From a virus (Duplodnaviria > Caudoviricetes): a stretch of 55,270 nucleotides of DNA. Of the stretch, positions 1 to 51,024 are shown piece after piece. The notes beneath the pieces were generated by a model. That model saw only the letters and a program-made list of their open reading frames with translations, was not told the origin of the DNA and did no database searches. The position numbers and the translations under genes are program-made. Each line of letters begins with the position of its first letter. Within the stretch, counting starts at the first letter, position 1. The stretch is from positions 1 to 55,270 of the IMG/VR virus record IMGVR_UViG_3300032156_000013. One strand, given 5' to 3'.

Positions 1-906
1 TCCGGTTTCTTCTATCGTTTTTTCCGAACCTTGGTCAAGTCTTTCTATCACAGCCCCCTCCGCTTCAGTATCATGTCTTGGATTTACTTCCTCTGGCCTA
101 TCTTCAATCTGATATAATCGCCTCTGTTTTGTTAATACCACTTGCCCTTCTCTGATTTCTTTTATTTGTTCGACAGACAGATCCAGTTCGCAAGTCAATG
201 GCCAGTGTTTATCTTTCCTCTTATCATGCTGAGTTTCTTTTTCTACTCTTCTCAATTTAAAAGGTAACATTGAAATTGAATTGTATTCTCCAGTATAAGG
301 ATTTCTCAATAGTTCTTGTGCTAGTGCTATACCACTCTGAACGTCAACCATGCTGTGCCAAGAGCCAGAATCTATGGCGTATACACCACCCATTGCTACA
401 TCTGGTAAGAAAAATAATAAAGTTGCTACTTTGCTACATCCATCTTTTTCTCCGAATTTTTCACAGGGACACTCTACCTCCTCGAACACACCTTCATCAT
501 TTGCCATCATAGCCTCTTCTCCATTACCAGTACACTTCAGTCCTCTGCTGCTACCATAGAATTTTAATGCTTGCGGAAATATACCGCCAATATCTGGTAA
601 ACCATTTTCATCCAAACAGGATAGAGGGAATAGAATATCCAACTCTGTCGGCTGGTCTCCATATACAGTCTTTACTTCTTTAGGTACTATAAAGTAGTTA
701 ACGTCTTTAGGGTGGAATAGTAGCTTGCCGAATTTATCACGTGCCTGAATTTGAACACCATTTGCATCTTTTTTATAATCTCCTTTGGAATCTTTCTCAA
801 TCGTGGGCACCTGTATACCAAGTCTTATCTTCCCTTTCCAAGGCAATCTCCTTATTGTACTTACTCCTTTAATACTAGTAAATTTCCTTTTGAAATTCGT
901 ACTCAT
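1..906 (-). CDS. Gp3-like (recombination directionality factor-like) phage protein, runs off the left edge
   Basis: Not in the ORF track; translated by hand from ATG at 906 (SD AAGGAGG): MSTNFKRKFTSIKGVSTIRRLPWKGKIRLG...HPKDVNYF...YGDQPTELDILFP...LKCTGNG...CPC...C...LLFFLP...GVYAIDSGSWHS. The frame is open to the window edge and the motif order matches the Gp3-like family as I recall it. Confidence 0.7.
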   Translation of the reverse strand, partial: MSTNFKRKFTSIKGVSTIRRLPWKGKIRLGIQVPTIEKDSKGDYKKDANGVQIQARDKFGKLLFHPKDVNYFIVPKEVKTVYGDQPTELDILFPLSCLDENGLPDIGGIFPQALKFYGSSRGLKCTGNGEEAMMANDEGVFEEVECPCEKFGEKDGCSKVATLLFFLPDVAMGGVYAIDSGSWHSMVDVQSGIALAQELLRNPYTGEYNSISMLPFKLRRVEKETQHDKRKDKHWPLTCELDLSVEQIKEIREGQVVLTKQRRLYQIEDRPEEVNPRHDTEAEGAVIERLDQGSEKTIEETG

Positions 907-5335: not shown

Positions 5336-5866
5336 CTACTTCACCTCCTCACCTCTTACTACTATCGTGTCTATTAGCTCAAAATTCCCTCTTTTTATCT
5401 TCTTTTCAAATTTAACTTTATATACTTTAATAGTTATTTTAATTGCCTTCGGGAAGATACCTTCTCCGGTTTCTACTACTACTTCGTAGAAATATTCTAT
5501 ATCACCGTGGAAACCATTCTTTTCACATATACCAAAGCCAAGAAGTAGAGCTGAATTATATTGTTGAGGATCAGACCATTTGATTTTATTTCCTTTTTCA
5601 TCTTGTCCGCCACCATATTTGGTATCGTAAAGCATTTCCTCGTGATATCTCTTGCTCCAGTAAATAAAGTTTGCTGTCATATATTCTAAATCAGTATTTC
5701 TCCCTCCATTCCACTTTAGGAATTCTTTTAGATCAGGAACTACTCCCTCAGGATAACCGTCAGAATGCCGGTATATCATTCTAGTCTCTTCTCTCTTTTT
5801 GGGTTCCCCATTTTTTAACTTGTAATTATAAATCTCTCTAAACTCTATGTTACACCTTGTACTCAC
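5336..5866 (-). CDS. Conserved phage early protein (MSTR...YxHxDGYP family)
   Basis: MSTRCNI...IYRHSDGYPEGV...HGDIEYFY motif set common in phage early regions; function unknown. Confidence 0.75.
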   Translation of the reverse strand: MSTRCNIEFREIYNYKLKNGEPKKREETRMIYRHSDGYPEGVVPDLKEFLKWNGGRNTDLEYMTANFIYWSKRYHEEMLYDTKYGGGQDEKGNKIKWSDPQQYNSALLLGFGICEKNGFHGDIEYFYEVVVETGEGIFPKAIKITIKVYKVKFEKKIKRGNFELIDTIVVRGEEVK

Positions 5867-11875: not shown

Positions 11876-13723
11876 CTATTCTTTCACTAATATTTTACTC
11901 TTGGTTTCGTGCTCAATCATATCACCTAAAATATTCCTTATTAATATTCTGCTCCTTGTCTCGTGCTCATCGATTTCGGTTGGACTGTCTATAATCGATA
12001 TTTCGCTTTCATTTTTTATGATAGCTAAAATCCCTCGTGAGAAAAAGTATTTTATCAAAACTCCATTTATACTAGTATTAATCTCTATTGTACAGGAAGC
12101 TTCTTCGATTTCTACTTCCTTCTCCGCGATAGCCCCTAGAATATCGGTTACCAGAATAAACTGGCTACTTGCTTCTTCAATCTTTCCTCTTGAGAGTAAC
12201 CCCGAAACCTTACTCACCAGTTCAAAAGTAGCCGAAGCTTCAATCGCTACACTCTCTAATATACCTTCTAGATTAGTATATATAAATACGGTTGTAGAAG
12301 CTTCTTCAATCTTCCCCTTGCTCAATTCCCCTTGAACATCGGTAGATAAATATATGATCTGGGAGGTCTCCTTAATTTTGCCCTTGCTCAGTAATCCAGA
12401 AATACCAGTATTTAATATAATGGTTTGGGAAGCTAATTCAACCTTCCCTTTGGCCAGAACCCCACTTACATCAGTAGCTAATTGATATACAGAGTAAGCA
12501 TTCCCGATGATTCCTTTCGCTAAACTACCAGTGATATTACTCGATAACAAATAAATAGAAGAAACCTCTTTAATTATTACGCTTCTCAATTCTCCAGATA
12601 TTAAAGTTGATATCCCTATTGTGGAAGTGGCTTCTTCAATCTTACCCTTATCTAAAATCCCAGCTATGTTAGTAAATAATGAATAACTGGAAGTTACTTC
12701 TTTAATTTTGCCTTTATTTAATGTCCCTGATATTGAATTCTGTAAATCATAAATCGATAAAGCACTCTCAATTTTTCCTTTTGATAATATTCCACTAATT
12801 AAAGAAGTCAAACTATAAATTGAGGAGGCTTCTCCTATCTCGCCCTTAGCCAATTCACCTGAGATTAAAGTCTGTAGCTCGAAAATGGAGATTGCTTCTT
12901 CTACTTTTCCTTTAGACAAGGCTCCATATATTAGAGTCTCTAAATCAAATATCGAAGAAGTGCTTTCTATTTTCCCCTTATTCAATATCCCAGTTACATT
13001 TGTTTGTAAGGAATAAATCGATGAGGCTAATAACTTATTATGCAATGCTCCTGATATTGAAGTTTCCAGATTGAAGACAGAAGAAGCACTTTCAATCTTA
13101 CCTTTCACCAATAATCCTGATACCAAAGTTTCTAAATTTAAAGTCGATGAAGCAATTTCGGTCTTGCCTTTTACTAATACTCCGCCAATGAGAGAAGCCA
13201 GAGAATAAATTGAGGAAGCCTCACTTATTTTTCCTTTACTCAATACTCCAGTCATTAAACTAGATAAGGAATAAATCGATACACCTTCTTCAATCTTTCC
13301 TTTGTTTAATACTCCAGATATATTAGTTTGCAGGGAATAAATAGAAGAAGTTTCTTTTGTTTCGCCTACGACTACATCGGGATTCCTTACAAATGGTTGT
13401 GCCTGAAAAGCGTAATCCATTGTGGTTAAATCAATACTAACTTTAGCAGGAACATCAACAAAGGGTTGAGCTTGAAAGGCGTAGTCCATTTTTTGTAAAT
13501 CTGTTTTACTCAACATAGATGTCCATGTGATTTCAAAAGATTCACTTGCTACAATCAGAGTTTCTAAATTAAAAATAGAAGAAGCAATTTCAATCTTGCC
13601 TTTAGACAATACACCAGCGATCCCCGTCTGTAAGGAATAAATAGAAGAAGCAAGTTTTGTCTCACCTACAACTACTTGGAAGACGTCATTCTGAAAGACA
13701 TCTAACTGAAAAGCCATATCCAT
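11876..13723 (-). CDS. 22-aa tandem-repeat fibre/scaffold protein
   Basis: About 22 copies of EASSIYSLxTxISGxLxKGKIE; duplicated MDYAFQAQPFV motif; N-terminal AFQLDVFQNDVFQ. Confidence 0.75.
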   Translation of the reverse strand: MDMAFQLDVFQNDVFQVVVGETKLASSIYSLQTGIAGVLSKGKIEIASSIFNLETLIVASESFEITWTSMLSKTDLQKMDYAFQAQPFVDVPAKVSIDLTTMDYAFQAQPFVRNPDVVVGETKETSSIYSLQTNISGVLNKGKIEEGVSIYSLSSLMTGVLSKGKISEASSIYSLASLIGGVLVKGKTEIASSTLNLETLVSGLLVKGKIESASSVFNLETSISGALHNKLLASSIYSLQTNVTGILNKGKIESTSSIFDLETLIYGALSKGKVEEAISIFELQTLISGELAKGEIGEASSIYSLTSLISGILSKGKIESALSIYDLQNSISGTLNKGKIKEVTSSYSLFTNIAGILDKGKIEEATSTIGISTLISGELRSVIIKEVSSIYLLSSNITGSLAKGIIGNAYSVYQLATDVSGVLAKGKVELASQTIILNTGISGLLSKGKIKETSQIIYLSTDVQGELSKGKIEEASTTVFIYTNLEGILESVAIEASATFELVSKVSGLLSRGKIEEASSQFILVTDILGAIAEKEVEIEEASCTIEINTSINGVLIKYFFSRGILAIIKNESEISIIDSPTEIDEHETRSRILIRNILGDMIEHETKSKILVKE

Positions 13724-14289: not shown

Positions 14290-16626
14290 TTAATCCGCCT
14301 GTGTTATAGTCATATCCTCCACATAAACACTTTCATCAGCAGTTCTTGCTACCCACCAAGCCCACGCTTCAATTTCCACTACTCCTGCTTGTGTCGGTGT
14401 AAAAGTTATAGTTAATTCATGCCAATCAGTATCTACTACTCCCGTATTAGTCTTAATATCTGCTACGGTCATACCCGTTAATTGCCCGCCAGGGCATACC
14501 AAAGCCCCTAATATATCAGTGGTGCTGGTAATCTTCATATACGCTTTTACAGTAACTAATTTACTTGCAACTACTGCTATTTTTGCAATAGATAATTTGA
14601 GAGGATAATAACTACTTCTAGTACTAGAGGTAACTGCCAACTTCCACATTATCCCCGTTCCACCCACTCTATCCGTTGCTACCGAACTAATTAATCCACC
14701 GTCAGTATATATAAAGTTTTTGGTAGTATCTTGGTCATGATTATTGGAATAAACTCGAAGATTTGAATATGCAGCTGGTGTAAAACTAATCTCTGTTCCT
14801 TCAGCAATTAAAGCATTATTCAGATAATTTGGTGCTGCATCTTCGTAATAAAAAACCCCGCTTGTCGTATTTCCACTGGTTGATAATGACCTTATAGTAT
14901 TATTAATGCTGGTAGCATAATAAACTCCATAAGTATTATTATTCGCATTAGTTATTGTAGTTATGGTATTGTTATTGCTGGTACTGAAATTAATTCCATT
15001 ATCAGTATTATTATTCGCATTAGTTATTGTAGTTATGGTATTGTTATTGCTGGTACTGAAATCAACTCCATTATCAGTATTATTATTCGCATTGATTATG
15101 GTAGTTATAGTATTATTATGACTGTTATTGTAAATATAAATGCCATCATAATTATTATTATTCGCATTGGTTATGGTAGTTATAGTATTGTTGTTGCTGG
15201 AGTAGAGATAAACTCCATAATTATTATTATTCGCATTAGTTATTGTAGTTATAGTATTATTATTGCTGCTGTTGTAAATATGAATGCCGTAATTATATCT
15301 ACAAACATTCAAACAGTTTAAGGTAATATAACTTTTTCCGTTTAAATATATTCCACTTCCATTCCCACTTAATCCATCAAAAAAAGTCTCTCCTGTTTGA
15401 TTTCCAGAAGTAATATCATAACCCCCTTGAAATTGGATATTGCCTACCGCTAAACTCCCACTATCCATTACTTGTTGAACTACCGTTCCCGAAGCCGAAA
15501 CTAAATCAGTTTTAATCGTTTCTCTTTTATAAGTGGTTACTGTTTCAGGAGTAGTTCCCGAAGTTGAATAACCTTCCCCCGCATTGCCTTTACAATTTGT
15601 ATCATTATCCAGTAAAACCGTTACTCCATTTATGCTTTGTATTCCATACCAACCTTCTGTTCCACCCTGCTCTAAGGTATTTTTAGAAATTAGACTTTGT
15701 AAATTAAGTCCATTTGTAGTACAGGCGATGAAGTCATCTACATAAATATATTTAGATGCCATTCCAGTGGTTGTTCCGCCAGACCAAACCGCGATAGACT
15801 TAATTGACGCTCCAAGATTCCCACCACCTACCTTAGTAAGGGTTAAGGGTATCCATCTTGCCGTTGAAGGAATTGCAGGGACGAGAAAACTGTCCACTAC
15901 CGTCGCACCAGCCGTATCAGAACATAGATTTACTATCCAATTATCGGCTACAATTGCACCTGAATTATTTATCCAGAAAGATATTTTTTGATAAGATGAT
16001 AAGTTTAATTCCCCTGTTGCATAATAGGCTTGCAGAATACTTGCTTGAACAGCGGCATCAAGGGCAAGTTTCATACAATAAGAACCTTCCTTACCATCAG
16101 TTGCTACCGCAGTTCTGGTTACTGTACAATCACCTACTCCAGTCCAAGCAGTTTCACACAAATCTATCACTAGTGTTCCAGCAGTAGCCAATGTAACTGT
16201 TTTAGATAAACTCGTCCAAGTTCCATTTCCAATAGAGGTAGGTGCAGGACTTTTAGCAATTTTAATAATATCACCAGGGGCAATTCTGGCTGCGGTTGCT
16301 CCTAAAGTAAGAGTTTTCCAAGCATCAACCCAAGACTGACCACCAAACGGCACAGCATTTCCTGTAACATCAGCTCCTGTAAACAATACCCAAGAAGCAC
16401 CATCTAATGTAAAATCATCTACACCAACATAAGTTACCGTCCATACTTTATTTGCATACGCTTGGGTACAACCAGAAACAGTAATTACAGACCCTGTTAT
16501 AAGACCATGTGCATCATAATGACCATTAACATCATCAGCACCACTTTTTGAAAACACTACTCCAGTTAAAGTAGCTCTTACTGCGTCGCTACCTAATACA
16601 TAATCTAAATAAAAAATATTTGGCAT
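14290..16626 (-). CDS. Receptor-binding protein / tailspike with right-handed beta-helix repeats
   Basis: FYLD...GSD...G.SW.DAWKT...PGD.I N-terminus, CBM-like central domain, repeats of SNNNTITTITNANNNxxG and a C-terminal CBM-like domain. Confidence 0.75.
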   Translation of the reverse strand: MPNIFYLDYVLGSDAVRATLTGVVFSKSGADDVNGHYDAHGLITGSVITVSGCTQAYANKVWTVTYVGVDDFTLDGASWVLFTGADVTGNAVPFGGQSWVDAWKTLTLGATAARIAPGDIIKIAKSPAPTSIGNGTWTSLSKTVTLATAGTLVIDLCETAWTGVGDCTVTRTAVATDGKEGSYCMKLALDAAVQASILQAYYATGELNLSSYQKISFWINNSGAIVADNWIVNLCSDTAGATVVDSFLVPAIPSTARWIPLTLTKVGGGNLGASIKSIAVWSGGTTTGMASKYIYVDDFIACTTNGLNLQSLISKNTLEQGGTEGWYGIQSINGVTVLLDNDTNCKGNAGEGYSTSGTTPETVTTYKRETIKTDLVSASGTVVQQVMDSGSLAVGNIQFQGGYDITSGNQTGETFFDGLSGNGSGIYLNGKSYITLNCLNVCRYNYGIHIYNSSNNNTITTITNANNNNYGVYLYSSNNNTITTITNANNNNYDGIYIYNNSHNNTITTIINANNNTDNGVDFSTSNNNTITTITNANNNTDNGINFSTSNNNTITTITNANNNTYGVYYATSINNTIRSLSTSGNTTSGVFYYEDAAPNYLNNALIAEGTEISFTPAAYSNLRVYSNNHDQDTTKNFIYTDGGLISSVATDRVGGTGIMWKLAVTSSTRSSYYPLKLSIAKIAVVASKLVTVKAYMKITSTTDILGALVCPGGQLTGMTVADIKTNTGVVDTDWHELTITFTPTQAGVVEIEAWAWWVARTADESVYVEDMTITQAD
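14890..15290. repeat. Coding tandem repeats of 69-72 bp (5-6 copies)
   Basis: Recurrent ATTATTATTCGCATTAGTTATTGTAGTTAT units encoding beta-helix rungs; boundaries approximate. Confidence 0.85.
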
Positions 16627-17725: not shown

Positions 17726-18529
17726 TTAAAAGCTAAATTCTATTCCAGCTTTTAAATAATATTTATTCAAATCGAACTCAAAATCCTTTACACCGAATAG
17801 ATTTAATCCCGCTCCGACTACAATGTTATCAGATATATTATAACATAAGTCTATTCCTGCTTTTAGATTATCAAAGTTATATCCTGTAACATTAAAACTG
17901 AACTTTTTCCAATCCCATATTTCATAACTAAAGCCAGGATAAAAGTCTTTATCGGTATAATCATATATCAAATTGAAACTCAAATTGTAATCTTTTTTAA
18001 TGACCTCAATCTTTTGGCCTGCTTGCAAATCACCAATTACTTCTTCTACATTTCTGTGTCGAGTAATAGTAATCCCACTCTCCAAAGAAACTAAATTACC
18101 TTCTGTATCTTCGTAAATTACTATCTTATCTGTCCCTGTATTAATCAGTATTTTATCAGGACTGGCTTGAAATTCATTTATTCTCTCTTCAAATTCTGCT
18201 CTGGCCACTTCTATCTTCTCGGCATTTACTTCTGGTTCTTTCTTTAATTCAATTAATTCCTCTTTCTTTGATTCATAAGTAGGTGCTTCTTCTTTTACCG
18301 TTATCTTTTCCTTTAAAGTCTCTCCTACTACCTTTTTCTGTATTTCCGCTAATTCATTGGTTAAAGTAATTATCGTTCCCTGATTCGCTTTTAATGTTTC
18401 TAATAGTTTTACTTCTTCAATTTTTTGATTGTTTCGCCACCTATCATATATTAAACAACCTTGCCAGACTGCAAAAATAAATATCCCGAGAAATATTACA
18501 ACAGCAATTATCTTCAAAATATTTTTCAT
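17726..18529 (-). CDS. Membrane-anchored coiled-coil protein with C-terminal beta-barrel strands (candidate spanin)
   Basis: N-terminal hydrophobic segment, charged coiled coil, about 6 amphipathic strands ending YYLKAGIEFSF. Confidence 0.6.
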   Translation of the reverse strand: MKNILKIIAVVIFLGIFIFAVWQGCLIYDRWRNNQKIEEVKLLETLKANQGTIITLTNELAEIQKKVVGETLKEKITVKEEAPTYESKKEELIELKKEPEVNAEKIEVARAEFEERINEFQASPDKILINTGTDKIVIYEDTEGNLVSLESGITITRHRNVEEVIGDLQAGQKIEVIKKDYNLSFNLIYDYTDKDFYPGFSYEIWDWKKFSFNVTGYNFDNLKAGIDLCYNISDNIVVGAGLNLFGVKDFEFDLNKYYLKAGIEFSF

Positions 18530-18533
18530 AACA

Positions 18534-18716
18534 TCACTTCTCCTTCTTGAATATACTTATAATCTTCTTGCCTATCCAGAGAATTGCTTTTCCCATCCCT
18601 TTTATTGCCGCTATGCTCCACTTATACCAATCTTTGAAAAAGTCCTTAACATGAAAAACTGCATATACTACAGCCATAGTCAACAATACTCTAAAGACTA
18701 TTTCCAGATAAGTCAT
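18534..18716 (-). CDS. Small membrane protein (holin/antiholin-like)
   Basis: One TM helix plus an amphipathic basic C-terminus, within the lysis cluster. Confidence 0.55.
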   Translation of the reverse strand: MTYLEIVFRVLLTMAVVYAVFHVKDFFKDWYKWSIAAIKGMGKAILWIGKKIISIFKKEK

Positions 18717-18734: not shown

Positions 18735-19253
18735 TTAAAATGTTCCGATAAGCTGAAACCTTCTTTTCAATACATTCCCTTTCCAATCTCTTATCTCTTG
18801 ATATTTTAACCCTAAAGGATAAAATTTTTTGCCTATCTCCTCGAAATCTTTAAAACCATACTCCATAGTATTATTGGAGAAGATATCATATTTATCATTA
18901 TTGAGAAAAGCAGTGACGGCATGCCCCATATACTTTTTCTTACCATTCCAAATACAATAACCAAAAGTCATTATAAATCTGGCATCTTCTCTCTTCTGAA
19001 TCCTACCTAAAATGTCAATAGCAAGAATTGCAGCATCCTCACAATCACCATACATATATTCTGCTGACTGGTCAGGCATTTTCCAATTATCCCAAAGGAT
19101 CGTCCATAATAAAATAGTTATCGTATCCCATTTATATTTGAAATCACTCATAAATGAATGTAGTTTAGCGATTGTATCTATCTCTTTAACTTTTGATAAA
19201 TATTCTGCATCTGGTTTCCAGTTATGCCAACGAGACCCTATACCAAAAAACAT
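18735..19253 (-). CDS. Transglutaminase-like cysteine peptidase (BTLCP-like)
   Basis: Y.WD...D.W..P....GDCEDAA...GHAV; catalytic Cys and His are visible. Confidence 0.75.
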   Translation of the reverse strand: MFFGIGSRWHNWKPDAEYLSKVKEIDTIAKLHSFMSDFKYKWDTITILLWTILWDNWKMPDQSAEYMYGDCEDAAILAIDILGRIQKREDARFIMTFGYCIWNGKKKYMGHAVTAFLNNDKYDIFSNNTMEYGFKDFEEIGKKFYPLGLKYQEIRDWKGNVLKRRFQLIGTF

Positions 19254-19804: not shown

Positions 19805-20245
19805 TCATCTCGGGGCCCCGAGCTTAACTTTGATCCAAGTTGCATCTGTCAATCCTAAATAATGAGCCGAGATAAAGATAAGCTTTTCGTTTCCTTTAAT
19901 CTCTGGAGTTATAAAATTAATATAATCTTTATGTTTAATCAATTCTCCATTACCTTTGGTAAATTTCCAGACTATCTCCTCAAAATTTATTTCCACTTCC
20001 CTCATACCAATTTCATCAGTATACCCTTTTGCTATAAATCTTAAAATATTTTTTTGTTTGCATTCTAGCGGACGATCTTTCGGATAATCAGGAAAAATAT
20101 GAAAAACCCTTATCTCTGCTTTCAATGGCTCAACTGGTTTAGATTTATCTTTCTTCATATATATTGAATACAATATATACAACATTGCTAATATCCATAT
20201 AATCAGGATCATAATAAAAAATGTATTGCTATTCACTTTTCTCAC
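19805..20245 (-). CDS. N-terminally anchored Ig-like membrane protein, likely paralog of 19347..19790
   Basis: TM helix, EPL linker, F.AKGY...VW...W beta domain. Confidence 0.6.
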   Translation of the reverse strand: MRKVNSNTFFIMILIIWILAMLYILYSIYMKKDKSKPVEPLKAEIRVFHIFPDYPKDRPLECKQKNILRFIAKGYTDEIGMREVEINFEEIVWKFTKGNGELIKHKDYINFITPEIKGNEKLIFISAHYLGLTDATWIKVKLGAPR

Positions 20246-20736
20246 CTCACTTTCTTTAGAAATTCATCTAAATCATTAATATTTTTAGAATAGATTATAG
20301 GAGTTCCATACTTTTTAACATACCAGAATTTAGAAGGTTTTGGAGTTACTACATCTACGTGAATATGATTCGGATAAATCCCGATTCTCTTGAATCCAAT
20401 TTCTATACATAATTTTGCTAAATCTATTAAATCCATACCTGCAACTCTTATATCCTCTGCTTCCCCATATATATGAGGAGAATCAGGTACCCCACCTGCA
20501 ATTTTATTATAAACAGGGCATCTCAATCCGCTCAAATAAATAACAGTCATTCCTCTTTCTGCTACCTTCATCTCTAATTGCTCTAATAATTCTAAAAACA
20601 AACCATCAATATTATAAGGCTTGTCTACACAATTTTTACAGGGACATTTCATCTTATCCTTTATTGTCATTATCCTCTTGTTCCTCTCCTTCAATTTCTT
20701 CTCTCTCTGAAATACCATTTTTAATATTCTGTTCAT
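20242..20736 (-). CDS. Endolysin, peptidase M15A family
   Basis: CPC...SGLRC..YN...GG...SPH..G.A.DI...IGIYPNHIHVDV (Zn ligands H, D, H). The true start may be internal (MTIKDK or MKCPC). Confidence 0.88.
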   Translation of the reverse strand: MNRILKMVFQREKKLKERNKRIMTIKDKMKCPCKNCVDKPYNIDGLFLELLEQLEMKVAERGMTVIYLSGLRCPVYNKIAGGVPDSPHIYGEAEDIRVAGMDLIDLAKLCIEIGFKRIGIYPNHIHVDVVTPKPSKFWYVKKYGTPIIYSKNINDLDEFLKKVR

Positions 20737-21037
20737 CTATTTTACCTCTTATATTAAAGTAATAAGCCAAAATTGTGCCCCATGCTCCAAATTCAATTCC
20801 GAATATCCCCAGCCAATTAGTAGATATTTCTCTACCAAATATTAATAAAAAAATAACAAGTGTAACTTGAATAAGAATCAGTATAGTGTAAATAATTACA
20901 ATCGTTCTTCTTAAAGTCAGATTATTCCAAGTATCCATGATTCTATCGAGTGATTTAATTAGCTTTATTGCTCGTCTTTCTATTCCCATAGACTCCCTTC
21001 CCAATATAAATGAATATACCAAGAATAAAAGTTGCAA
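20654..21037 (-). CDS. Holin-like protein (2 TM)
   Basis: Two hydrophobic helices, ILAYYF motif and charged C-terminus, directly upstream of the endolysin; real start probably MGIERR. Confidence 0.65.
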   Translation of the reverse strand: MQLLFLVYSFILGRESMGIERRAIKLIKSLDRIMDTWNNLTLRRTIVIIYTILILIQVTLVIFLLIFGREISTNWLGIFGIEFGAWGTILAYYFNIRGKIDEQNIKNGISEREEIEGEEQEDNDNKG

Positions 21038-21317
21038 AGAGCCCTAGCAACCAATACCAAGTACTTGATAAATCTTTCATTCTCTCCAATATAGAAAATA
21101 TGCTCTGTTCAGTTACAGTCACTCTGTTCTCCAAAGTATAAACCTTATCCGTAGTTAAACTAGAATTCTTTTCAATTCTTGTTACAGTATCATTGATATA
21201 ATTTACTTTTTCAGTTAGTTGAATAAGCAACTCTCTATCAGTCAATTCAGATCTTTGACTGTAACCTATTCTACTAAACATCAATATTGCCAAAACTATT
21301 AAAATAATTTTTTTCAT
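20955..21317 (-). CDS. XhlA-like coiled-coil membrane protein with signal peptide
   Basis: MKKIILIVLAILMFSRIGYS signal-like N-terminus, heptad region, C-terminal TM helix. Confidence 0.6.
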   Translation of the reverse strand: MKKIILIVLAILMFSRIGYSQRSELTDRELLIQLTEKVNYINDTVTRIEKNSSLTTDKVYTLENRVTVTEQSIFSILERMKDLSSTWYWLLGLFATFILGIFIYIGKGVYGNRKTSNKAN

Positions 21318-41997: not shown

Positions 41998-43503
41998 TCA
42001 ATTTTCTGCTATCTTATTTACACCTTTAACCAATTCAATCATAGCACCCACAAACTCATCTTGCTTCTTCTCTATTACTTCTTCTTTCTTCTTTATCTCT
42101 TCTTCCTTCTTCTTTATCTCTTCTTCGCCTACCTGCAACAAAGTAACTTTTATATAATATTTATCCCCACCTGGATACGGTTTACCAAGTCCCAGCGCAC
42201 TCCTCATTTGATTTGGAGTCATTGCACCATTTTCTATCAAGGTATTATACCTAATGGTTTCTTTATCAAAATCCCTTACATCCATAGGCACAAATTCAAA
42301 ACTGTAATATACACAGCCCAAACCTTCTTGCAATATTTTGCTATTTATAATACTTGCAAGCTTCGTCTGTAACGGTTCTACCACAGATTCTGCATAAATA
42401 TGCGTAGCTTCTACAGCCACATTTCCTCCAAGTGAACCTATTACTCTTACTCCTATCCTTTCAGGTGGCATTCGATAAGCAATTAGTACATCGTCTACTA
42501 ATGATTGCTGATAAAACCTGAAACTACTTTCTTTTGTCTCTGTAATTAATGGTGTATAAACAAACTTGCATCCATCAGGAACTTCAAACACCATTGTCTT
42601 ATGTGCATTATCAGTATTTCTTACCTCACTATCGAGAAAATCTCTTATCTTTTTAGCAGAACCTGCTTCCCATTCTCCTTCTAGAGTTATCAACGCTACC
42701 GGGACCCCATAATTTTCAAAAAACGCCAGGTTATAATCTCTAATACTTATCAGTCCTACAACCGAACCTATAGCCGATATAATATTTGGCACTCCGTAAT
42801 AACTCGATTTTGAATAATACTTCTTGAAATATATAAGTTCATTTGCTTTATTTTTATCTTCTGCTTTCGAGCCTACTATTTCTCCAGTTTCTGCCGATAT
42901 ATCTTTCTCTTCACCATACTTCTTAAACCAAACTTTGCTATTATTCCTCAACTGACAAAATTTTTTACTGTTCTTATGCACCCTAAAAGTATGTGCAGGT
43001 ATATGATATAATTCGCTTATCTCAGTTACTTTAGTATTCAAATTTTTACTCTTCACTACTTCGATTCCGAACCATCCTACCGAACCTAAGTCTACAATCG
43101 CTTTATTCAATATCTCTCTCAGGGAGTCCTCTGGATTAGGTTTATCTATCAACTTTTGTATTTTTTCTTTCTCTGCCTTCGTTTCATCATTTTCTTCGGT
43201 CCCTTCTTCTAAAACCAAATTATATCCCCTCCCTGCCACGTCCTCTGCTATTTGTTCCACACATGCTGAGAATATAGAATTACTTTCGAATAATGTCAAT
43301 AAACTACTTGGATTATAAGGTGGGGATACTAAACTTTTTATACCAAACGATAACGCTTCTTCCTGAAGCTGTTTTGATTCCTTCTTTATTTCATATCTAT
43401 TAAGGACAGATATAGGATATACTCCTTTAGTTGTCCTTACAAACTGCCTTCCGACAGTTCTACTGTCTCCAACTGTCACTCTACCTTTCTTTTTCTCTGT
43501 CAT
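41998..43503 (-). CDS. Portal protein (PBSX/HK97-like)
   Basis: PPYNP..L, LYHIPAHTFR, NELI.F..Y...S.YYGVP, FFEN.G.P, AY.MPP..IG, TPN..R..LG. Confidence 0.92.
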   Translation of the reverse strand: MTEKKKGRVTVGDSRTVGRQFVRTTKGVYPISVLNRYEIKKESKQLQEEALSFGIKSLVSPPYNPSSLLTLFESNSIFSACVEQIAEDVAGRGYNLVLEEGTEENDETKAEKEKIQKLIDKPNPEDSLREILNKAIVDLGSVGWFGIEVVKSKNLNTKVTEISELYHIPAHTFRVHKNSKKFCQLRNNSKVWFKKYGEEKDISAETGEIVGSKAEDKNKANELIYFKKYYSKSSYYGVPNIISAIGSVVGLISIRDYNLAFFENYGVPVALITLEGEWEAGSAKKIRDFLDSEVRNTDNAHKTMVFEVPDGCKFVYTPLITETKESSFRFYQQSLVDDVLIAYRMPPERIGVRVIGSLGGNVAVEATHIYAESVVEPLQTKLASIINSKILQEGLGCVYYSFEFVPMDVRDFDKETIRYNTLIENGAMTPNQMRSALGLGKPYPGGDKYYIKVTLLQVGEEEIKKKEEEIKKKEEVIEKKQDEFVGAMIELVKGVNKIAEN

Positions 43504-46734: not shown

Positions 46735-48201
46735 TTAAAACCCTTTTTCGTTATTAACTATGGACTTACTGTGTCGTTCTATTTTTTCGCCGATTCTAAA
46801 TTTCGCCATTTCTGAATCACAAATATCTTTCAATCCCTGATTTTTCAACCATTTATAAATTCTGTATTTGCTTGGCATTCCCCTCGTTACTGGCCTATTT
46901 TTCGTAAACGAATTACTATTTTTTATCATTCTATCATAAAATTCTTCTAAAGAAACTATACCTGAAGATTCTGATAACGTTTTTTCTAATAATTCCTTAA
47001 CGCATTCAATCGAAGTCACAAATCCTGAACGTTGACCTATTTTATCTTTCATAAATTCTAATCTTTGGATTCCGTAATTCATTCCTTCCCCGTACGTATC
47101 TTTAACGAATTTTCTGATTTTCTCCATTTCTCCTTGGCTTTCATCATAATTTTCGTATACATACCTAAGCATCATTTTCGCTTCATCAAAATTCTTGTAC
47201 AAGAATTTATAATCTTCATACCTTTCTCTTATTAATCCTTTCACCCAATACAGTTTCGGCAATATTACCACCGGGCCAGCATACATCATCTGTAAAATCC
47301 CTAAAGTAAGACCTTCATGTATTGAACAAGACAATACTACATCAGCTCTCACCATTTCCTCTGCGAATTTATCAAACGAACAATTATATATGAACCTTAT
47401 CTCCTTATATTTTTTCTTCCATTTATTGCCCATCTTGGATTCCGCACGAGGCGAAGTCACTACTATTTCTACATTTCTTCCAAAAGCATAAAACAAATCA
47501 TATATTTCCAGTAATTGTTTTGCCCTTTTTGAACAGTTCAACCTACCACCAAAAAAAACTACAAATTTTTCGTTAACTATCCTATTTTTTTTGTAAACAT
47601 CTATTTTTGCCGACGGTATATTGTGCGGTATTACTACCGAATTCTGTATTATTTTATCTACTACCGCTCCCCTTACGTAGTGTGTTGCTGAGTTTATTGC
47701 TTTTGCCATTTCTACCTCACTGTCGAATATAGGACACTCATAAGCATACGCCATCGCTCTAGTCACCATCTCAAGATCGGTGATTTTCGTCTGACCCTTA
47801 TTCCTGTCTATTGATTCAAATACTTCTATAAACACCGGTATGCTGTTTCTTTTAGTCCTGAAATCCCATAACATCCTCCCCATCATCATGGCTGCCTGAG
47901 TTCTGTTAGTCCACACAGCATCAATAGGATAATACCCTATCCTCTCATTAAACATCCTCAAAAAGCCTTCTGGAATTTCTACTTCTTGATCGTAATACAG
48001 AGACTTGTCATCATCATACCATAATATCTTGGTATTTTCTATTTCAGGCAGTTTTCCCTGAAATCTTAGCGGTGCATACAGATACAAATACAAAGGCTCC
48101 TTACCTTTGAACATCTCATCAGCAAGATCTTTAAAATCCAAAAATTCACTTGCCCCACTGGCATTTGATATAGTCCATATGGGAGCTATCAGCAATCTCA
48201 T
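46735..48201 (-). CDS. GT-B (GT4-like) glycosyltransferase
   Basis: VIP, FGGRL...K, ADV.LS.S.HEGL.LGILQMM.AG.VVI.P; extra C-terminal domain. Confidence 0.85.
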   Translation of the reverse strand: MRLLIAPIWTISNASGASEFLDFKDLADEMFKGKEPLYLYLYAPLRFQGKLPEIENTKILWYDDDKSLYYDQEVEIPEGFLRMFNERIGYYPIDAVWTNRTQAAMMMGRMLWDFRTKRNSIPVFIEVFESIDRNKGQTKITDLEMVTRAMAYAYECPIFDSEVEMAKAINSATHYVRGAVVDKIIQNSVVIPHNIPSAKIDVYKKNRIVNEKFVVFFGGRLNCSKRAKQLLEIYDLFYAFGRNVEIVVTSPRAESKMGNKWKKKYKEIRFIYNCSFDKFAEEMVRADVVLSCSIHEGLTLGILQMMYAGPVVILPKLYWVKGLIRERYEDYKFLYKNFDEAKMMLRYVYENYDESQGEMEKIRKFVKDTYGEGMNYGIQRLEFMKDKIGQRSGFVTSIECVKELLEKTLSESSGIVSLEEFYDRMIKNSNSFTKNRPVTRGMPSKYRIYKWLKNQGLKDICDSEMAKFRIGEKIERHSKSIVNNEKGF

Positions 48202-49230
48202 CTATCTTTCCTCCGAATCTCCTACTACTTCTCCTAAACATCTTTTCGTGAAATAGTCTTCGGTTAATTCTTTAGGCATCCAATCAGGATTTTTCTTATA
48301 CCAATCTATAGTCATCTTCATACCTTGGTTAAAAGTTAACCTATTCTTCCATCCAAGTATCTTAGAAGTCTCATACGGATTTATATACTTCACTTTTATA
48401 TCGAGAGGTCTTCCACTCACATATTTTATTTTAGTATTCGGTATAAAAGATTGCACTACTCCTGCCATTTCTTTTACAGTAACCTTGTAATCTGGAACTA
48501 AAGAAAACACCCGGCTATTTACTCCATCATCTTCAAGTGCAATCGCTACTCCTCTTACTGTTTCTCCTACATATATATGCTGTCTCCACTGGCTACCATC
48601 TCCATGTATCTCAAGAGGCAACCCCTTCATTGCTCTTCTAATGAAAATGTCATCTACTACACCAGGCCTCATTCTTGGACCATACGTTGTCCCGAATCTA
48701 GTAATTATATATTTCTTATTATTTAGATATGCCCAATCTCTAACACACATCTCCATAGCTACCTTATTACTCACATATGGATGATAGGACAATCCTGTAT
48801 CAAGCCATGTTTCGTTAGCTTCTACTTCGTCTTCATAACCTCCATAATAACGCATCTCACTCTCTAGCAATCCTGATATTAGACTTGAGGACGCTATTAG
48901 CACTTTATCGAGATACTTCCCACCTTGATCTAAAAGCCTCGATAAACCATAAAGCCCGTTCTTGTAATTCTCCGATAACATCTTTCCTGCACTGCAAGTA
49001 TGACTGATGCCAGCAAGATATACTAGAACATTATATCCTCTATCTTTGACTATACTTCCGAAATCATTCAGGGTAGTAACATCTGCTTTTATAAACTTCG
49101 CTTTAAAATCCAAATCAGATATACAACCATCTACTACATCTATTAACAGTACTTCGTGACCTCTCTTATTTAACGTCTCGGCTAAATGCCCGCCTATAAA
49201 ACCTGTTCCCCCTGCTATTACTATTTTCAT
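48202..49230 (-). CDS. NAD-dependent epimerase/dehydratase (extended SDR)
   Basis: GGTGFIG, ASSS, YVSNK (YxxxK), R....YGPRM, GDGSQ.R..IYV. Confidence 0.92.
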   Translation of the reverse strand: MKIVIAGGTGFIGGHLAETLNKRGHEVLLIDVVDGCISDLDFKAKFIKADVTTLNDFGSIVKDRGYNVLVYLAGISHTCSAGKMLSENYKNGLYGLSRLLDQGGKYLDKVLIASSSLISGLLESEMRYYGGYEDEVEANETWLDTGLSYHPYVSNKVAMEMCVRDWAYLNNKKYIITRFGTTYGPRMRPGVVDDIFIRRAMKGLPLEIHGDGSQWRQHIYVGETVRGVAIALEDDGVNSRVFSLVPDYKVTVKEMAGVVQSFIPNTKIKYVSGRPLDIKVKYINPYETSKILGWKNRLTFNQGMKMTIDWYKKNPDWMPKELTEDYFTKRCLGEVVGDSEER

Positions 49231-50408
49231 TTTTTAACCCTCCCCACTGGTGATAAAGAAACTTTCCTATTCAATACTTCATTTATTACGTCCACTGTAT
49301 ACTTAACTTCTTCCTCTGTAGTTATCTCTGACAATGGTAAGCACACATGTCTTTTTGAAAACTCTTCTGCCTGAGGGAAACTTAACATACCCCACCTTCC
49401 GAAATATATCGGTTGTTGATGTATACATACATCATATACATCGCCCGACATTGAAACATCTCTCTTTTCTGTTTCAAGCTTAAACCAACTTTTTGACACT
49501 CCTTCAGGTAACATAGCCATATACTTATAGAAGTTAGACTTTATACCATTAAACTTCATTCTTATTAATTTTTCTGGCCAGTACTTACTATAAAGTGCTG
49601 CTGCCTTTCTTCTATTCTCTAATATTTCATCTATTTCCTTTATCTGTTCACAACCTAGTGCAGCATGGAATTCTGTCATCCGCCAGTTATACCCATCTCT
49701 TATTATTACCGATTCTCCAAAATCACCAGTTCTACCATAATTTCTCATACATTTTGCTTCGGTCTCCCACCGGTCATCATCAAATAAAATCATTCCGCCT
49801 TCTGCTGTATTCAGGACCTTGGTAGCATAAAAGCTCATACAACTTATGTCCTCAAAAGAACCTACCCTTATATTTGGCTGACATAAACCATAATCTCCAT
49901 CTAGCTCAAGCCCTATTGCGTGTGCATTATCGCCTATAAGATATACTCCATTTCTCATACAAACTTCTCTTATTTCTAAACTATCTGTAGCGGTTACTCC
50001 TCCGCAAGGCATTAACACCACTGCCTTTACAATATGATAACGATTATTTATCACGTGTTCTATCTGGCTTGCCGTAAAGTTTATATTATTCTCAATATCT
50101 ATATCTACTAATAAAGGTATACCACCTGCTCTATCTATTGCAGTTACAACTGAGTAAAATCCGTTAGCTGGTATAATTACCTCCTTCCCCCTTACATCTA
50201 TCAATCTCATAGCCAGTTCCAGTGCTGCAGTATCATTACTTACAGATACTGCATGTTTCCTTCCAAGATAACTTGCCATCCTAGCTTCAAATTCTTTAGT
50301 ATTTTTCCCGAGTATTACCATTCCAGACTCTAATATTTTTGCCCATCTCAAAATAGTTCCCCTTTTTACATTATCACTATATACAACTCTTGTGGCTGGG
50401 ACTTTCAT
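49227..50408 (-). CDS. DegT/DnrJ/EryC1/StrS family PLP-dependent sugar aminotransferase
   Basis: EFE, S..TAAL, DNAHAIG, SFYATK (PLP Lys), EGGM, GYNWRM.E..AALG, LP. Confidence 0.93.
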   Translation of the reverse strand: MKVPATRVVYSDNVKRGTILRWAKILESGMVILGKNTKEFEARMASYLGRKHAVSVSNDTAALELAMRLIDVRGKEVIIPANGFYSVVTAIDRAGGIPLLVDIDIENNINFTASQIEHVINNRYHIVKAVVLMPCGGVTATDSLEIREVCMRNGVYLIGDNAHAIGLELDGDYGLCQPNIRVGSFEDISCMSFYATKVLNTAEGGMILFDDDRWETEAKCMRNYGRTGDFGESVIIRDGYNWRMTEFHAALGCEQIKEIDEILENRRKAAALYSKYWPEKLIRMKFNGIKSNFYKYMAMLPEGVSKSWFKLETEKRDVSMSGDVYDVCIHQQPIYFGRWGMLSFPQAEEFSKRHVCLPLSEITTEEEVKYTVDVINEVLNRKVSLSPVGRVKK

Positions 50409-51024
50409 AATTTACCTCCTTATTTTTATAATATACTTGGCTGAGATGCCAAAACCTTTCTGAAATTATCGCTTCAGAGACTCTCCTTGCTATCTCTTTA
50501 TACCCTTCGCAATTCAGATGCACTCCATCAGAATACATGTTTTCGTCTATACCCCTTAATTCGACTAATTTAACTTCGTTATCTTCCGCCATACTTTCTA
50601 TCACTTTATTATATTCTTCTATTCTATGTGAGGATCTTACTGTATAATCAGGGCACCCGAAACCAACCATATCTGGGATAGTACACAAATACACTTTCTT
50701 CTTACAAACTTTAGCTACTCTCAATATTTGTTCTATATTCTCTTTGAATATTTCTACCGGCGTTATGATGTTATCTTTCGAATCATTTGTGCCGGTTAGA
50801 AATATTACCTCATAACATTCGGGATACTTTCTAATCGTCTTATACACCCTAGTTGCTAATTCTGAAGACGTTTCTCCAGGTAATCCTTCCGCTATGGCTA
50901 CCCAACCTTGATCATACTTTTCACTTAATATCTTTCCAAGATAAAAAGCATAATCTCTTCCATAATTTTCCCTACTTCCATAGGTGAGGGAGTCTCCTAT
51001 ACACAATATAAAACCGTATACCAT
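50377..51024 (-). CDS. SGNH/GDSL hydrolase (esterase or acyltransferase)
   Basis: GDSLT, G..GETS, GTND and DGVH blocks. Confidence 0.92.
   Translation of the reverse strand: MVYGFILCIGDSLTYGSRENYGRDYAFYLGKILSEKYDQGWVAIAEGLPGETSSELATRVYKTIRKYPECYEVIFLTGTNDSKDNIITPVEIFKENIEQILRVAKVCKKKVYLCTIPDMVGFGCPDYTVRSSHRIEEYNKVIESMAEDNEVKLVELRGIDENMYSDGVHLNCEGYKEIARRVSEAIISERFWHLSQVYYKNKEVNYESPSHKSCI

Follow-up and report, generated by a model that had tools for sequence, protein, structure and literature searches.

How does a phage break the outer membrane of its host when its lysis genes include no recognisable spanin? Phages are known to disrupt this membrane with lipoprotein spanins (Rz/Rz1 or gp11) or, rarely, with cationic peptides, and how phages of diderm hosts without the Lol system breach it is, to our knowledge, unexplored. 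One report puts the share of phages of Gram-negative hosts without a recognisable spanin at about 15% (bioRxiv 10.1101/515445), and entire diderm phyla are reported to lack both Lol and outer-membrane lipoproteins (bioRxiv 10.1101/2021.05.31.446380; PMC11784454). The locus analysed here lies in a 55,270-nucleotide stretch of viral DNA (IMG/VR record IMGVR_UViG_3300032156_000013; the window hereafter means this whole stretch), in which a 267-amino-acid protein had been proposed as an inverted unimolecular spanin that combines an N-terminal membrane anchor, a coiled coil and a C-terminal beta-barrel signal. Our analysis suggests that this protein could be a new phage route to breaking the host outer membrane.

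A conserved protein closes the lysis cassette

The gene under study and its neighbours are arranged as follows.

17726..18529, minus strand: whole open reading frame of the 267-aa protein (267 aa plus stop codon), with an ATG start; it closes the lysis cassette, a position kept in related loci
18540..18544, minus strand: its ribosome-binding site AGGAG, 10 nt 5′ of the ATG and within the 3′ end of the upstream 60-aa gene
18534..18716, minus strand: 60-aa membrane protein whose amphipathic tail is rich in Lys; translationally coupled and a candidate partner of the 267-aa protein
20242..20736, minus strand: peptidase M15 endolysin (PF08291, E 8e-13; phrog_894 endolysin, E 1.4e-16)
20654..21037, minus strand: holin-like membrane protein with two hydrophobic segments and no family match, conserved in related loci
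20955..21317, minus strand: XhlA-like protein (PF10779), first cassette gene, with a signal-like N-terminus, a coiled coil and a C-terminal membrane helix

The cassette thus runs from the XhlA-like protein through the holin-like protein, the endolysin and the small cationic membrane protein to the 267-aa protein, in tightly coupled genes; the stop codon of the 60-aa gene lies 4 nt before the final ATG. The XhlA-like gene scored 31.1 bits against PF10779, under the cut-off of 34.7, and its heptad score exceeded chance. G+C content was 0.30-0.335 over 17.5-21.7 kb, including the gene under study, against 0.37-0.41 in the flanking tail genes. On one side of the cassette lies a 1259-aa tail protein; on the other come a Gp80-like fibre protein and then a beta-helix tail spike. 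A promoter and terminator scan yielded no signal exceeding that of shuffled sequence.

The placement in a lysis cluster was upheld, with the protein emerging as the conserved last member of the cassette. Of the 13 related viral loci, 11 have an endolysin homologue upstream in the same orientation; since L005, L006 and L011 hardly differ from one another, these amount to nine distinct contexts. Homologues of the 60-aa protein lay directly upstream in L004, L005/6/11, L007, L008, L009, L010 and L013. L013, the locus that diverges most (30% identity), has a cassette pared down to the XhlA-like protein, the holin-like protein, the M15 endolysin, a membrane protein of 51 aa and the homologue of the 267-aa protein; its stop and start codons overlap, and an unrelated methylase comes after the last gene. 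L010 carries a GH108 muramidase (E 2e-27) in place of the M15 endolysin and retains the remaining four genes, and in L015 a Gp80-like gene is located between the small membrane protein and the final gene. Both the M15 and the GH108 endolysins are single-domain enzymes without wall-binding modules.

Homology searches returned 103 sequences at E<=0.001 and, altogether, approximately 105 metagenomic relatives, every one of them on a phage-sized contig; a profile search built from 105 sequences added no further relatives. The cultured-phage collection held none, and a PDB sequence search with the family profile gave nothing below E 0.14. An exhaustive representative search for split or fused forms produced only 16 matches, among which seven short ones end within conserved blocks and are therefore read as contig-end fragments. 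Two candidate long forms, P0106 and P0117, were rejected as repeat proteins with composition-driven matches. Family matches to Pfam DUF7248, TPR_21 and LemA were judged uninformative; the DUF7248 match, the sole one of the three that was located, spans residues 8-43, i.e., the membrane helix region.

As originally predicted, no Rz/Rz1 pair is recognisable, and the window contains no lipoprotein spanin candidate: in our own pattern scan of ORFs of at least 25 aa in all six frames of the window (~80% of the genome), the only lipoprotein-type signal was at Cys25 of the 267-aa protein itself.

The N-terminal helix carries a conserved aromatic motif and no lipobox

18446..18511, minus strand: hydrophobic helix, residues 7-28, predicted to be either a signal-anchor (N-in, C-out) or a long signal peptide (hydropathy; AlphaFold2)
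18437..18469, minus strand: aromatic motif G-Y-x-G-Y-x-x-Y-x-x-W, residues 21-31, at the outer end of the helix, conserved in the family

The predicted N-terminal hydrophobic helix is well founded, with a Kyte-Doolittle value of 2.28 across residues 1-19 and an uncharged stretch of 22 residues (I7-Y28), and both AlphaFold2 runs modelled a continuous helix over residues 2-35. At its outer end, the aromatic motif is shared by most of the family (G21 in 96/105, Y22 in 94/105, G24 in 103/105, Y25 in 93/105, Y28 in 94/105 and W31 in 98/105); the protein's own version reads V-W-Q-G-C-L-I-Y-D-R-W. The VWQGC segment had been offered as a possible atypical lipobox. We reject this idea because Cys occupies that column in only 2/105 members, with Tyr in 93/105; any Cys among the first 45 residues was found in six of the 105. 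The N-terminus accordingly lacks the lipobox Cys that a T1 gp11-like u-spanin would have.

Signal-peptide cleavage, which sequence features make possible, would mean that the inner-membrane anchor is lost. Past position 20, the signal-peptidase (-3,-1) rule was satisfied in 74 of the 105 members (consensus A-F-A|G-Y) and violated in the other 31, which carry V, L, M or F at -1. The uncharged run comprises just 16 residues in 21/105 members, short for a membrane helix.

A predicted compact alpha/beta domain takes the place of the proposed coiled coil

18020..18421, minus strand: compact alpha/beta domain, residues 37-170, predicted periplasmic (AlphaFold2, pLDDT 75-84, 105 sequences)
18050..18163, minus strand: most conserved block of the family by column entropy, residues 123-160, SPDKILINTG..KIVIYED..GNLVSLESG.TITRHR
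17987..18019, minus strand: variable low-confidence linker, residues 171-181 (pLDDT <50 at 173-178; entropy 2.15 over residues 161-180)

The long charged coiled coil of the original prediction proved correct as to charge, with 16 K/R and 22 D/E among the 95 residues from 31 to 125, and incorrect as to the coiled coil. In two AlphaFold2 runs (pLDDT 78 for the protein model), the helices were at most 20 residues long and, together with seven strands, formed a compact domain, in which three strands, two helices, four strands and one helix follow one another over residues 37-170. A crude heptad score for residues 30-180 was 0.62, against 0.54 +/- 0.09 for shuffled sequences, 20% of which scored at least as high. 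Mean column entropy was 0.92 in residues 123-160 versus 1.2-2.2 in other parts, and the domain gave weak PUR/Whirly-like fold matches (Z 6.9 and 6.4). Since the modelled periplasmic domain is compact and not an extended rod, it is doubtful that the protein could span the periplasm unless the domain unfolds or the membranes lie close together.

The C-terminus bears hallmarks of an outer-membrane beta domain

17729..17986, minus strand: candidate outer-membrane beta domain, residues 182-267, six amphipathic strands rich in Phe/Tyr/Asn/Asp/Gly (AlphaFold2 pLDDT ~80; structure neighbours)
17729..17761, minus strand: beta-signal-like C-terminus YYLKAGIEFSF, residues 257-267 (family conservation)

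The beta-signal recognised by BAM consists of a terminal Phe or Trp with hydrophobic residues at -3, -5, -7 and -9. Sequence hallmarks of a BAM substrate are present, and the terminal pattern is far from what chance would give: the terminal Phe is found in 108/108 family members, without any extension, an aromatic or hydrophobic residue occupies -3 in 104/105, and -5 and -9 are hydrophobic in 105/105; furthermore, six strands are predicted, along which hydrophobic and polar residues alternate, and they bear aromatic girdles. Aromatic residues make up 22 of the 92 residues from 176 to 267. With strand centres picked by the analyst, their frequency was 5-11% at the centres and 33-37% at 3-6 residues away, and the turns contained 51% charged residues. 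The two strand faces differ in hydropathy (mean Kyte-Doolittle +2.49 vs -1.27); the polar face, rich in Gly, Ser and Asn, carries the invariant Gly225, Gly241, Ser201 and Asn213. A lipid-facing side would be expected to be more variable, whereas the two faces showed no difference in conservation (entropy 1.52 vs 1.46, p = 0.78).

Structural comparisons pointed in more than one direction. A Foldseek search of the PDB gave no match at E<=0.001, and its weak rows held the outer-membrane barrels PcoB, OmpU, KdgM, NanC, OmpT and OMPLA amid unrelated folds. In the ESM Atlas, seven of the 10 rows for residues 176-267 were clusters named or typed as outer-membrane beta-barrels or porins (TM-by-query 0.60-0.65, within 0.57-0.73 for the whole list), and BFVD matches with a probability of 0.85-1.0 include phage proteins named OMP beta-barrels. 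The solved structure that best matched residues 178-267 was a designed soluble barrel of six strands, BBn6 (Z 9.6-9.7, rmsd 2.8, 84 residues), against Z 4.6-5.9 for outer-membrane barrels; Cap15, which combines membrane helices with a small soluble barrel, was also matched (Z 4.7-4.8). The monomer model closes a six-strand barrel, with 9xzt as its best match (Z 9.7), and closed barrels of fewer than eight strands are not known among outer-membrane proteins. Because of this strand count and the soluble nature of the closest solved fold, a soluble C-terminal domain, which would contradict the original prediction, is among the alternatives weighed below.

Pfam OMP_b-brl (PF13505) matched two of 38 members, at best with E 0.0032, below the cut-off, and did not match the protein itself. 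A homo-trimer prediction for residues 161-267 scored 0.00 against a mark of 0.42 and carries no weight either way. In a YadA-like trimeric anchor, four C-terminal strands per chain build a 12-strand barrel underneath a coiled-coil stalk; the models here have six strands and no coiled coil, and the YadA-like anchor family is absent among the Pfam matches listed for the family.

Clues to the host

The endolysin types appear to point to a diderm host. Relatives of the M15 endolysin came from 38 phage records whose named host genera are all Gram-negative, the others being Microviridae or unnamed phage records, and among the 476 records of GH108 relatives the 10 commonest genera (of 49 names) are likewise all Gram-negative. 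Relatives of the 267-aa protein lie, on contigs of 3.0-27 kb, in MAG bins with conflicting labels: Atribacteria, Methanofastidiosum, Izemoplasmatales and Dehalococcoidales. Among species-representative genomes, a relative occurred in one alone, a Dehalococcoidales MAG, on a 3-kb contig that holds phage genes only; this MAG, a bin whose completeness is not stated, gave no match for Omp85. The best cultured relatives of the portal are Methanobacterium viruses (31-33%), the major tail protein is nearest to those of Bacillus and Streptococcus phages, and the control genomes of B. subtilis and L. lactis both contain Pfam XhlA. The window contains no tRNA genes, and the relatives of its DegT aminotransferase bore no informative names. 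The sequencing runs encountered during host inference were sediment metagenomes only. According to two reports, diderm Terrabacteria possess BAM and lack both Lol and outer-membrane lipoproteins (bioRxiv 10.1101/2021.05.31.446380; PMC11784454). In hosts of this kind, a lipoprotein spanin could not function.

A model for outer-membrane disruption and its alternatives

The reading that we tentatively favour, while rating it somewhat below an even chance, is that the 267-aa protein acts in lysis by disrupting the outer membrane, where it is anchored through a BAM-type beta domain and not through a lipid; an additional tether to the inner membrane is probable. The N-terminal helix would insert into the cytoplasmic membrane with N-in/C-out topology, the conserved compact alpha/beta domain of ~135 residues would sit in the periplasm, and, beyond a short flexible linker, the six amphipathic strands would be inserted into the outer membrane by the host BAM. 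After holin and endolysin action, the protein would perform the last lysis step and break the outer membrane as a single-chain spanin analogue, its outer-membrane end being a beta-barrel segment and not a Lol-sorted lipid, with a polarity the reverse of that of T1 gp11. From the sequence features, fold, family-wide conservation and cassette position observed or predicted here, we infer the membrane locations, the retained N-terminal helix, the BAM dependence and the lytic function. A bolder proposal, which we consider somewhat unlikely, is that of a third spanin class, comprising single chains with an alpha-helical inner-membrane anchor and a BAM-inserted outer-membrane beta segment, which would have evolved in phages of Lol-less diderms (diderm Terrabacteria, e.g., Atribacterota).

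All the evidence for an outer-membrane location would apply equally if the helix were cleaved off as an ordinary signal peptide. The protein would then be a beta-barrel protein of the outer membrane only, with a periplasmic N-terminal domain and no bridging of membranes; its layout would resemble that of OmpM or of an OmpA turned around. At a late stage of infection it could weaken the outer membrane or the tether of that membrane; alternatively, like lambda Lom, it could act at the surface or in exclusion. This alternative, which we regard as unlikely, draws on the predominance of acceptable cleavage sites, on the short uncharged runs of some members and on the existence of phage OMP-type barrels (BFVD entries; Pfam Phage_OMP among the nearest clusters). 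The V, L, M or F at -1 in the remaining members counts against it, as does the >88% conservation of G21, Y22, G24, Y25, Y28 and W31 within one modelled helix (2-35): conserved residues past the putative cleavage site in a continuous helix fit the interface belt of a retained helix. Tight cassette coupling and shared G+C further argue against an independent moron.

A soluble C-terminus would yield another protein altogether, anchored in the cytoplasmic membrane and displaying, on the outer side of that membrane, a soluble alpha/beta domain together with a small soluble six-strand barrel, which would regulate or assist lysis; it could be an antiholin-like timer, bind a wall component or work with the small cationic protein, and the host could be monoderm or archaeal. 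The superior match to the soluble designed barrel, the Cap15 match, a strand count below that of the outer-membrane barrels we know of and the equal conservation of both strand faces speak for such a domain, and a host of this kind would accord with the monoderm and archaeal MAG labels, the Dehalococcoidales MAG without an Omp85 match, the affinities of the portal and major tail protein, and the XhlA-like cassette gene. However, an invariant, unextended terminal Phe combined with the -3/-5/-9 pattern is hard to explain in a soluble domain, and the Gly/Ser/Asn-rich polar face with invariant mid-strand glycines and the aromatic girdles also run counter to it; single-domain endolysins without wall-binding modules, whose phage relatives have Gram-negative hosts, oppose a monoderm host, and the MAG labels contradict one another on contigs of <=27 kb. 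We therefore accord this reading, too, a low probability. Far less probable still is a virion- or tail-associated protein, such as a fibre-assembly or membrane-penetration factor, as might be suggested by the position of the cassette between the tail protein and the fibre and tail-spike genes and by the Gp80-like gene that intervenes in L015. In L013 and L010 the gene precedes a methylase or a thioredoxin and not tail genes, lysis genes are always upstream, and no PHROG structural family was matched; an N-terminal membrane helix is, moreover, unusual in virion proteins.

If the favoured outer-membrane lysis protein is real, its use of the universally conserved BAM route would explain how the outer membrane is breached in Lol-less diderms, and annotators would gain a searchable signature located after the endolysin: a transmembrane helix, then a conserved domain, then a beta domain that ends in Phe. 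Retention of the N-terminal helix would make this an unprecedented dual-membrane architecture, relevant to envelope biology and lysis-based tools. Under the bolder third-class proposal, no earlier protein known to us would be held in both bacterial membranes by these two different types of transmembrane element, and, should the six strands assemble alone, they would form the smallest natural outer-membrane beta domain.

Comparison with known systems

Among the papers listed on spanins and beta-barrels, on spanins and disruptins, and on gp11-type unimolecular spanins, none described such a protein in its title or abstract. Lambda Lom is a phage-encoded OMP-type barrel, and the 267-aa protein resembles such barrels (Pfam Phage_OMP PF24653, BFVD entries) in that an outer-membrane-barrel-like domain originates from a phage gene; with a feature score of 0.83 and Foldseek E values of 0.01-0.1, this likeness is a lead only. 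The phage OMP-type barrels named in the matches measure 87-200 aa; those we know of are stand-alone proteins with signal peptides, and we know of none in a lysis cassette. With OmpM and OmpA, which have periplasmic domains, and with the small barrels OmpW, OprF-N, NspA and PagL, the protein shares a terminal-Phe beta-signal, alternating strands and aromatic girdles. It also resembles BAM-dependent outer-membrane barrels in being rich in Asn, Asp, Tyr, Phe and Gly and in having mostly such barrels as structural neighbours, and it differs from them in having six strands per chain, in reaching no curated OMP family, in being encoded in a phage lysis cassette and in an N-terminal helix that may be retained.

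The lambda i-spanin Rz likewise has a predicted N-terminal transmembrane helix, a periplasmic domain and a gene located after the endolysin, and weak matches to PHROG 'Rz-like spanin' families (phrog_8821, E 0.011; phrog_214, E 0.099) cover residues 3-87 only. Unlike Rz, the 267-aa protein has neither a coiled coil nor an Rz1-like lipoprotein partner, carries an additional 90-residue beta domain and belongs to a family whose periplasmic cysteines are not conserved across alignment columns.

T1 gp11, a u-spanin, is described as having an N-terminal lipobox, which provides an outer-membrane lipid anchor, and a C-terminal transmembrane helix (PMC6139136), and u-spanins have been proposed to rely for their action on beta-sheet domains in place of coiled coils (Kongari et al. 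2018, PMC6139136). As far as that description goes, both proteins are single polypeptides encoded among lysis genes, with a beta-rich periplasmic part and a proposed link between inner and outer membranes. No sequence similarity between them was found. The 267-aa protein has its helix at the N-terminus, lacks a lipobox and ends in an amphipathic beta domain that carries a beta-signal; no 19-residue window past residue 30 exceeds a Kyte-Doolittle value of 1.03, and the C-terminal transmembrane helix typical of u-spanins is thus lacking. The opposite membrane polarity put forward in the original prediction is supported.

Outer-membrane disruption without a spanin has been reported for the 'disruptin' phiKT gp28, a small cationic peptide from a spanin-less phage (bioRxiv 10.1101/515445). 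As characterised there, gp28 is unlike the 267-aa protein, which would be bitopic with a beta domain; it is the neighbouring 60-aa Lys-rich protein that recalls gp28.

Gene neighbourhood of the target protein

The 267-aa target closes a block that includes an endolysin and whose order is kept in related loci, in agreement with the original prediction, which had placed it in a lysis cluster. G+C is uniformly low over this region (0.30-0.335 over 17.5-21.7 kb) compared with 0.37-0.41 in the flanking tail genes.

Features of the lysis block
20955-21317, minus strand: XhlA-like protein, start of the block
20654-21037, minus strand: holin-like protein with two helices
20242-20736, minus strand: Peptidase_M15 endolysin (PF08291, E 8e-13; phrog_894, E 1.4e-16)
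17726-18529, minus strand: target, a real ORF of 267 aa with an ATG start
AGGAG 10 nt upstream of the target ATG, minus strand: target ribosome-binding site, within the 3′ end of the preceding 60-aa gene

Between the endolysin and the target lie two variable membrane proteins, a 172-aa protein and a 60-aa Lys-rich membrane protein. The 60-aa gene, whose stop falls 4 nt before the target ATG, is translationally coupled to the target, and in most related loci a homologue immediately precedes the target. Its product (18534-18716, minus strand) has a single hydrophobic helix plus an amphipathic tail rich in Lys, with 11 K/R versus 4 D/E, and could be either the target's partner or a disruptin-like cationic peptide active on the outer membrane. 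The 172-aa protein (18735-19253, minus strand), present in the window and in related loci L004 and L008 only, carries a GDCEDAA...H motif, weakly matches the periplasmic cysteine protease LapG (4fgo, E 0.054) and may represent a further peptidase acting on the wall or envelope. The XhlA-like protein scores just under the Pfam cut-off; its N-terminus resembles a signal peptide and is followed by a coiled coil, with a membrane helix at the C-terminus, a topology shared with u-spanins except that the lipobox is missing. A six-frame scan of the window found no lipoprotein-type ORF except for the target's own unconserved Cys, which bears out the absence of a recognisable Rz/Rz1 pair in the original prediction, and promoter and terminator scans stayed at chance level.

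A same-strand endolysin was located upstream of the target in 11 of 13 related viral loci, equivalent to nine distinct contexts since L005, L006 and L011 are near-identical. The most divergent locus, L013 (30% identity), has a cassette pared down to five genes whose stops and starts overlap (XhlA-like protein, holin-like protein, M15 endolysin, 51-aa membrane protein and target); a DNA methylase lies downstream. At L010, BLAST against the window proteins gave no endolysin; a GH108 muramidase (5357-5776, plus strand; E 2e-27) occupies the place of M15, the five-gene order is kept, and the gene after the target encodes a secreted thioredoxin whose N-terminus is signal-like. The XhlA-like versions of both loci lack the N-terminal hydrophobic part. 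The target is thus retained alongside the lysis genes even where the endolysin is exchanged or the downstream genes differ.

Distribution of the target family

Searching a collection of 5.8 billion proteins returned 103 target relatives at E<=0.001, measuring 180-293 aa and all residing on contigs of <=66 kb. Scanning 1.84 billion representatives exhaustively with HMMER gave only 16 matches, seven of them short pieces ending within conserved blocks; two others were spurious repeat proteins and were rejected. A profile search with the target family recovered no further relatives, and none occurred among 50,697 cultured-phage records. Taken together, the searches outline a closed family of few members, constant in length and carried by phages. 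A single 43-kb viral contig carries both L010, a full target copy near one end, and L014, a locus truncated at the target gene at the other; the partial copy spans residues 127-243 at 43% identity and may be either a second, divergent paralogue or an assembly repeat.

N-terminal helix and middle domain

The N-terminal hydrophobic helix held up on analysis: residues 1-19 average 2.28 on the Kyte-Doolittle scale, and no charged residue occurs from I7 to Y28. After position 20, the (-3,-1) peptidase pattern is present in 74 of 105 members and absent from 31, and a G-Y-x-G-Y-x-x-Y-x-x-W motif is conserved in >88%; both AlphaFold2 runs place the residues of this motif within one helix. We somewhat favour a retained signal-anchor over a cleaved signal peptide, and this is the least secure step of our model. 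The suggestion that VWQGC is an atypical lipobox was not sustained, the Cys column being Tyr in 93 and Cys in only 2 of 105 members.

Residues 31-125 are highly charged (38 of 95 are K, R, D or E) and had been read as a long coiled coil. Instead, AlphaFold2 runs with 38 and then 105 sequences (pLDDT 70.7 and 78.1) converged on the same fold: a helix at 2-35, a short helix, three strands, helices at 85-95 and 103-122, four strands and a helix at 161-170, in which everything after the first helix packs as one domain (pLDDT 75-84 in the second run). A crude heptad score was likewise at chance for the target (0.62 versus 0.54 +/- 0.09 in shuffles) and above chance for the XhlA-like neighbour (0.72 versus 0.46 +/- 0.10). 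Across the protein, conservation peaks in the second half of this domain, at residues 123-160 (entropy 0.92). The domain resembles PUR/Whirly-type folds to an intermediate degree (2gia, Z 6.9-7.0; 3k44, Z 6.4), and we read no function into this.

C-terminal beta domain

After a disordered linker, AlphaFold2 predicted six long strands within residues 182-267 (pLDDT about 80), a domain with 24% aromatic residues and abundant Asn, Asp and Gly. The strands alternate strictly between hydrophobic and polar residues, with face means of +2.49 and -1.27 on the Kyte-Doolittle scale, and the polar face carries G225, G241, S201 and N213, small or polar residues that never vary. Turns are charged, and aromatics account for 33-37% of residues 3-6 positions from strand centres, as chosen by the analyst, versus 5-11% at the centres. 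The strongest feature is a terminal Phe in 108 of 108 members without extension, preceded by an aromatic or hydrophobic residue at -3 (104 of 105), hydrophobic residues at -5 and -9 (105 of 105) and, in the long variant, Gly at -6; this terminus matches the BAM beta-signal. These features are typical of outer-membrane barrel proteins.

Structure comparisons weakly favour a membrane reading. With the ESM Atlas model of residues 176-267, 7 of 10 rows were clusters named or typed as outer-membrane beta-barrel or porin (TM-by-query 0.60-0.65), and the BFVD matches include phage proteins named as OMP barrels, with probabilities of 0.85-1.0 but E values of 0.01-0.1. Foldseek against the PDB gave no match at E<=0.001, its weak rows mixing several outer-membrane barrels with unrelated folds. 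Other results point away from a membrane domain. Among solved structures, 9xzt, BBn6, matched best (Z 9.6-9.7, rmsd 2.8 A, 84/90 residues), with outer-membrane barrels confined to Z 4.6-5.9. The strand count of six is below that of every outer-membrane barrel known to us, Pfam OMP_b-brl matched only 2 of 38 members under its cut-off, and conservation was equal on both strand faces (p = 0.78). According to PMC12478100, BBn6 was designed as a soluble six-strand barrel, and its fold is described there as rarely if ever found in nature. Of the C-terminal barrel signal originally proposed, the alternating strands and terminal Phe stand; the closest solved fold is soluble.

Host of the virus

The sequencing runs containing this DNA are sediment metagenomes, and bins with target relatives carry the labels Atribacteria, Methanofastidiosum, Izemoplasmatales and Dehalococcoidales; the Dehalococcoidales genome gave no Omp85 match, and the contig of its relative is 3 kb with phage genes only. 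Among cultured viruses, the portal (41998-43503, minus strand) is closest to those of two archaeal viruses of Methanobacterium, Drs3 (E 2e-54) and PhiF3 (E 4e-48), at 31-33% identity, compared with about 29% and E 1e-33 for Streptomyces phages, and the major tail protein resembles those of Bacillus and Streptococcus phages. The M15 and GH108 endolysins are both single-domain. Named host genera among 38 records of M15 relatives are all Gram-negative, plus Microviridae, as are the ten commonest genera among 476 records for GH108. Because relatives of both enzymes occur almost only in phages of Gram-negative hosts, a murein-containing diderm host is favoured on moderate evidence. A host among the diderm Terrabacteria would be consistent with the combination of Terrabacteria-type structural genes and lysis enzymes of diderm type.

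Proposed mechanism and alternatives

From sequence features, fold predictions and synteny, we infer a localization and function as follows. The N-terminal helix would insert in the cytoplasmic membrane, the conserved domain would fold in the periplasm, and the terminal-Phe signal would deliver the C-terminal strands to BAM for insertion in the outer membrane, alone or in an oligomeric barrel. Following holin and endolysin action, the doubly anchored protein, possibly jointly with the coupled 60-aa cationic protein, could destabilise the outer membrane or draw the membranes together. By hypothesis, the target works like a spanin but belongs to no spanin family: it lacks the lipobox and C-terminal helix of u-spanins, as well as the coiled coil and o-spanin partner of i-spanins. 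It resembles BAM substrates in sequence but not in strand count, and falls short of every curated OMP family. That the periplasmic domain is non-helical does not disqualify it, since Kongari et al. (PMC6139136) propose that u-spanins act via collapsing beta-sheet domains rather than coiled coils. The rationale for a barrel rather than a lipid anchor is that diderm Terrabacteria, according to bioRxiv 10.1101/2021.05.31.446380 and PMC11784454, possess BAM but lack Lol and outer-membrane lipoproteins. In the literature, judged mostly from titles, abstracts and selected passages, we found no description of a barrel-anchored spanin.

We tentatively regard the target as an outer-membrane-disrupting lysis protein. 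An outer-membrane protein with a cleaved signal peptide, for which the peptidase pattern in 74 members speaks and against which the 31 members devoid of it speak, seems less likely. An inner-membrane protein with soluble domains would accommodate the resemblance to BBn6 but leave the universal terminal Phe to be explained, and we consider it less likely to the same degree. The proximity of tail genes could suggest a virion protein, which is highly improbable for a gene that keeps company with lysis genes across divergent loci.

Other genes in the window

The window, an IMG/VR virus record of 55,270 bp estimated to be 80% complete, has virtually all of its genes on the minus strand. It represents a siphovirus-type genome that encodes a terminase, a portal, a major tail protein and a tape measure. 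At the cut record end, a Gp3-like recombination directionality factor (4-906, minus strand; PF18897, E 8.8e-26) suggests a temperate phage with its integrase outside the window. A block at 46735-51024 (minus strand), encoding a glycosyltransferase, NAD-dependent epimerase/dehydratase, DegT-type aminotransferase and GDSL acylhydrolase, may modify a host surface glycan. The 615-aa protein at 11876-13723 (minus strand) matches pentatricopeptide repeats (PPR_2, E 3.1e-10), which is unusual in a phage, and a 778-aa tail-spike-like protein (14290-16626, minus strand) has a NosD/right-handed beta-helix region built of near-identical Asn/Thr-rich repeats of the NNNTITTITNANNN type.
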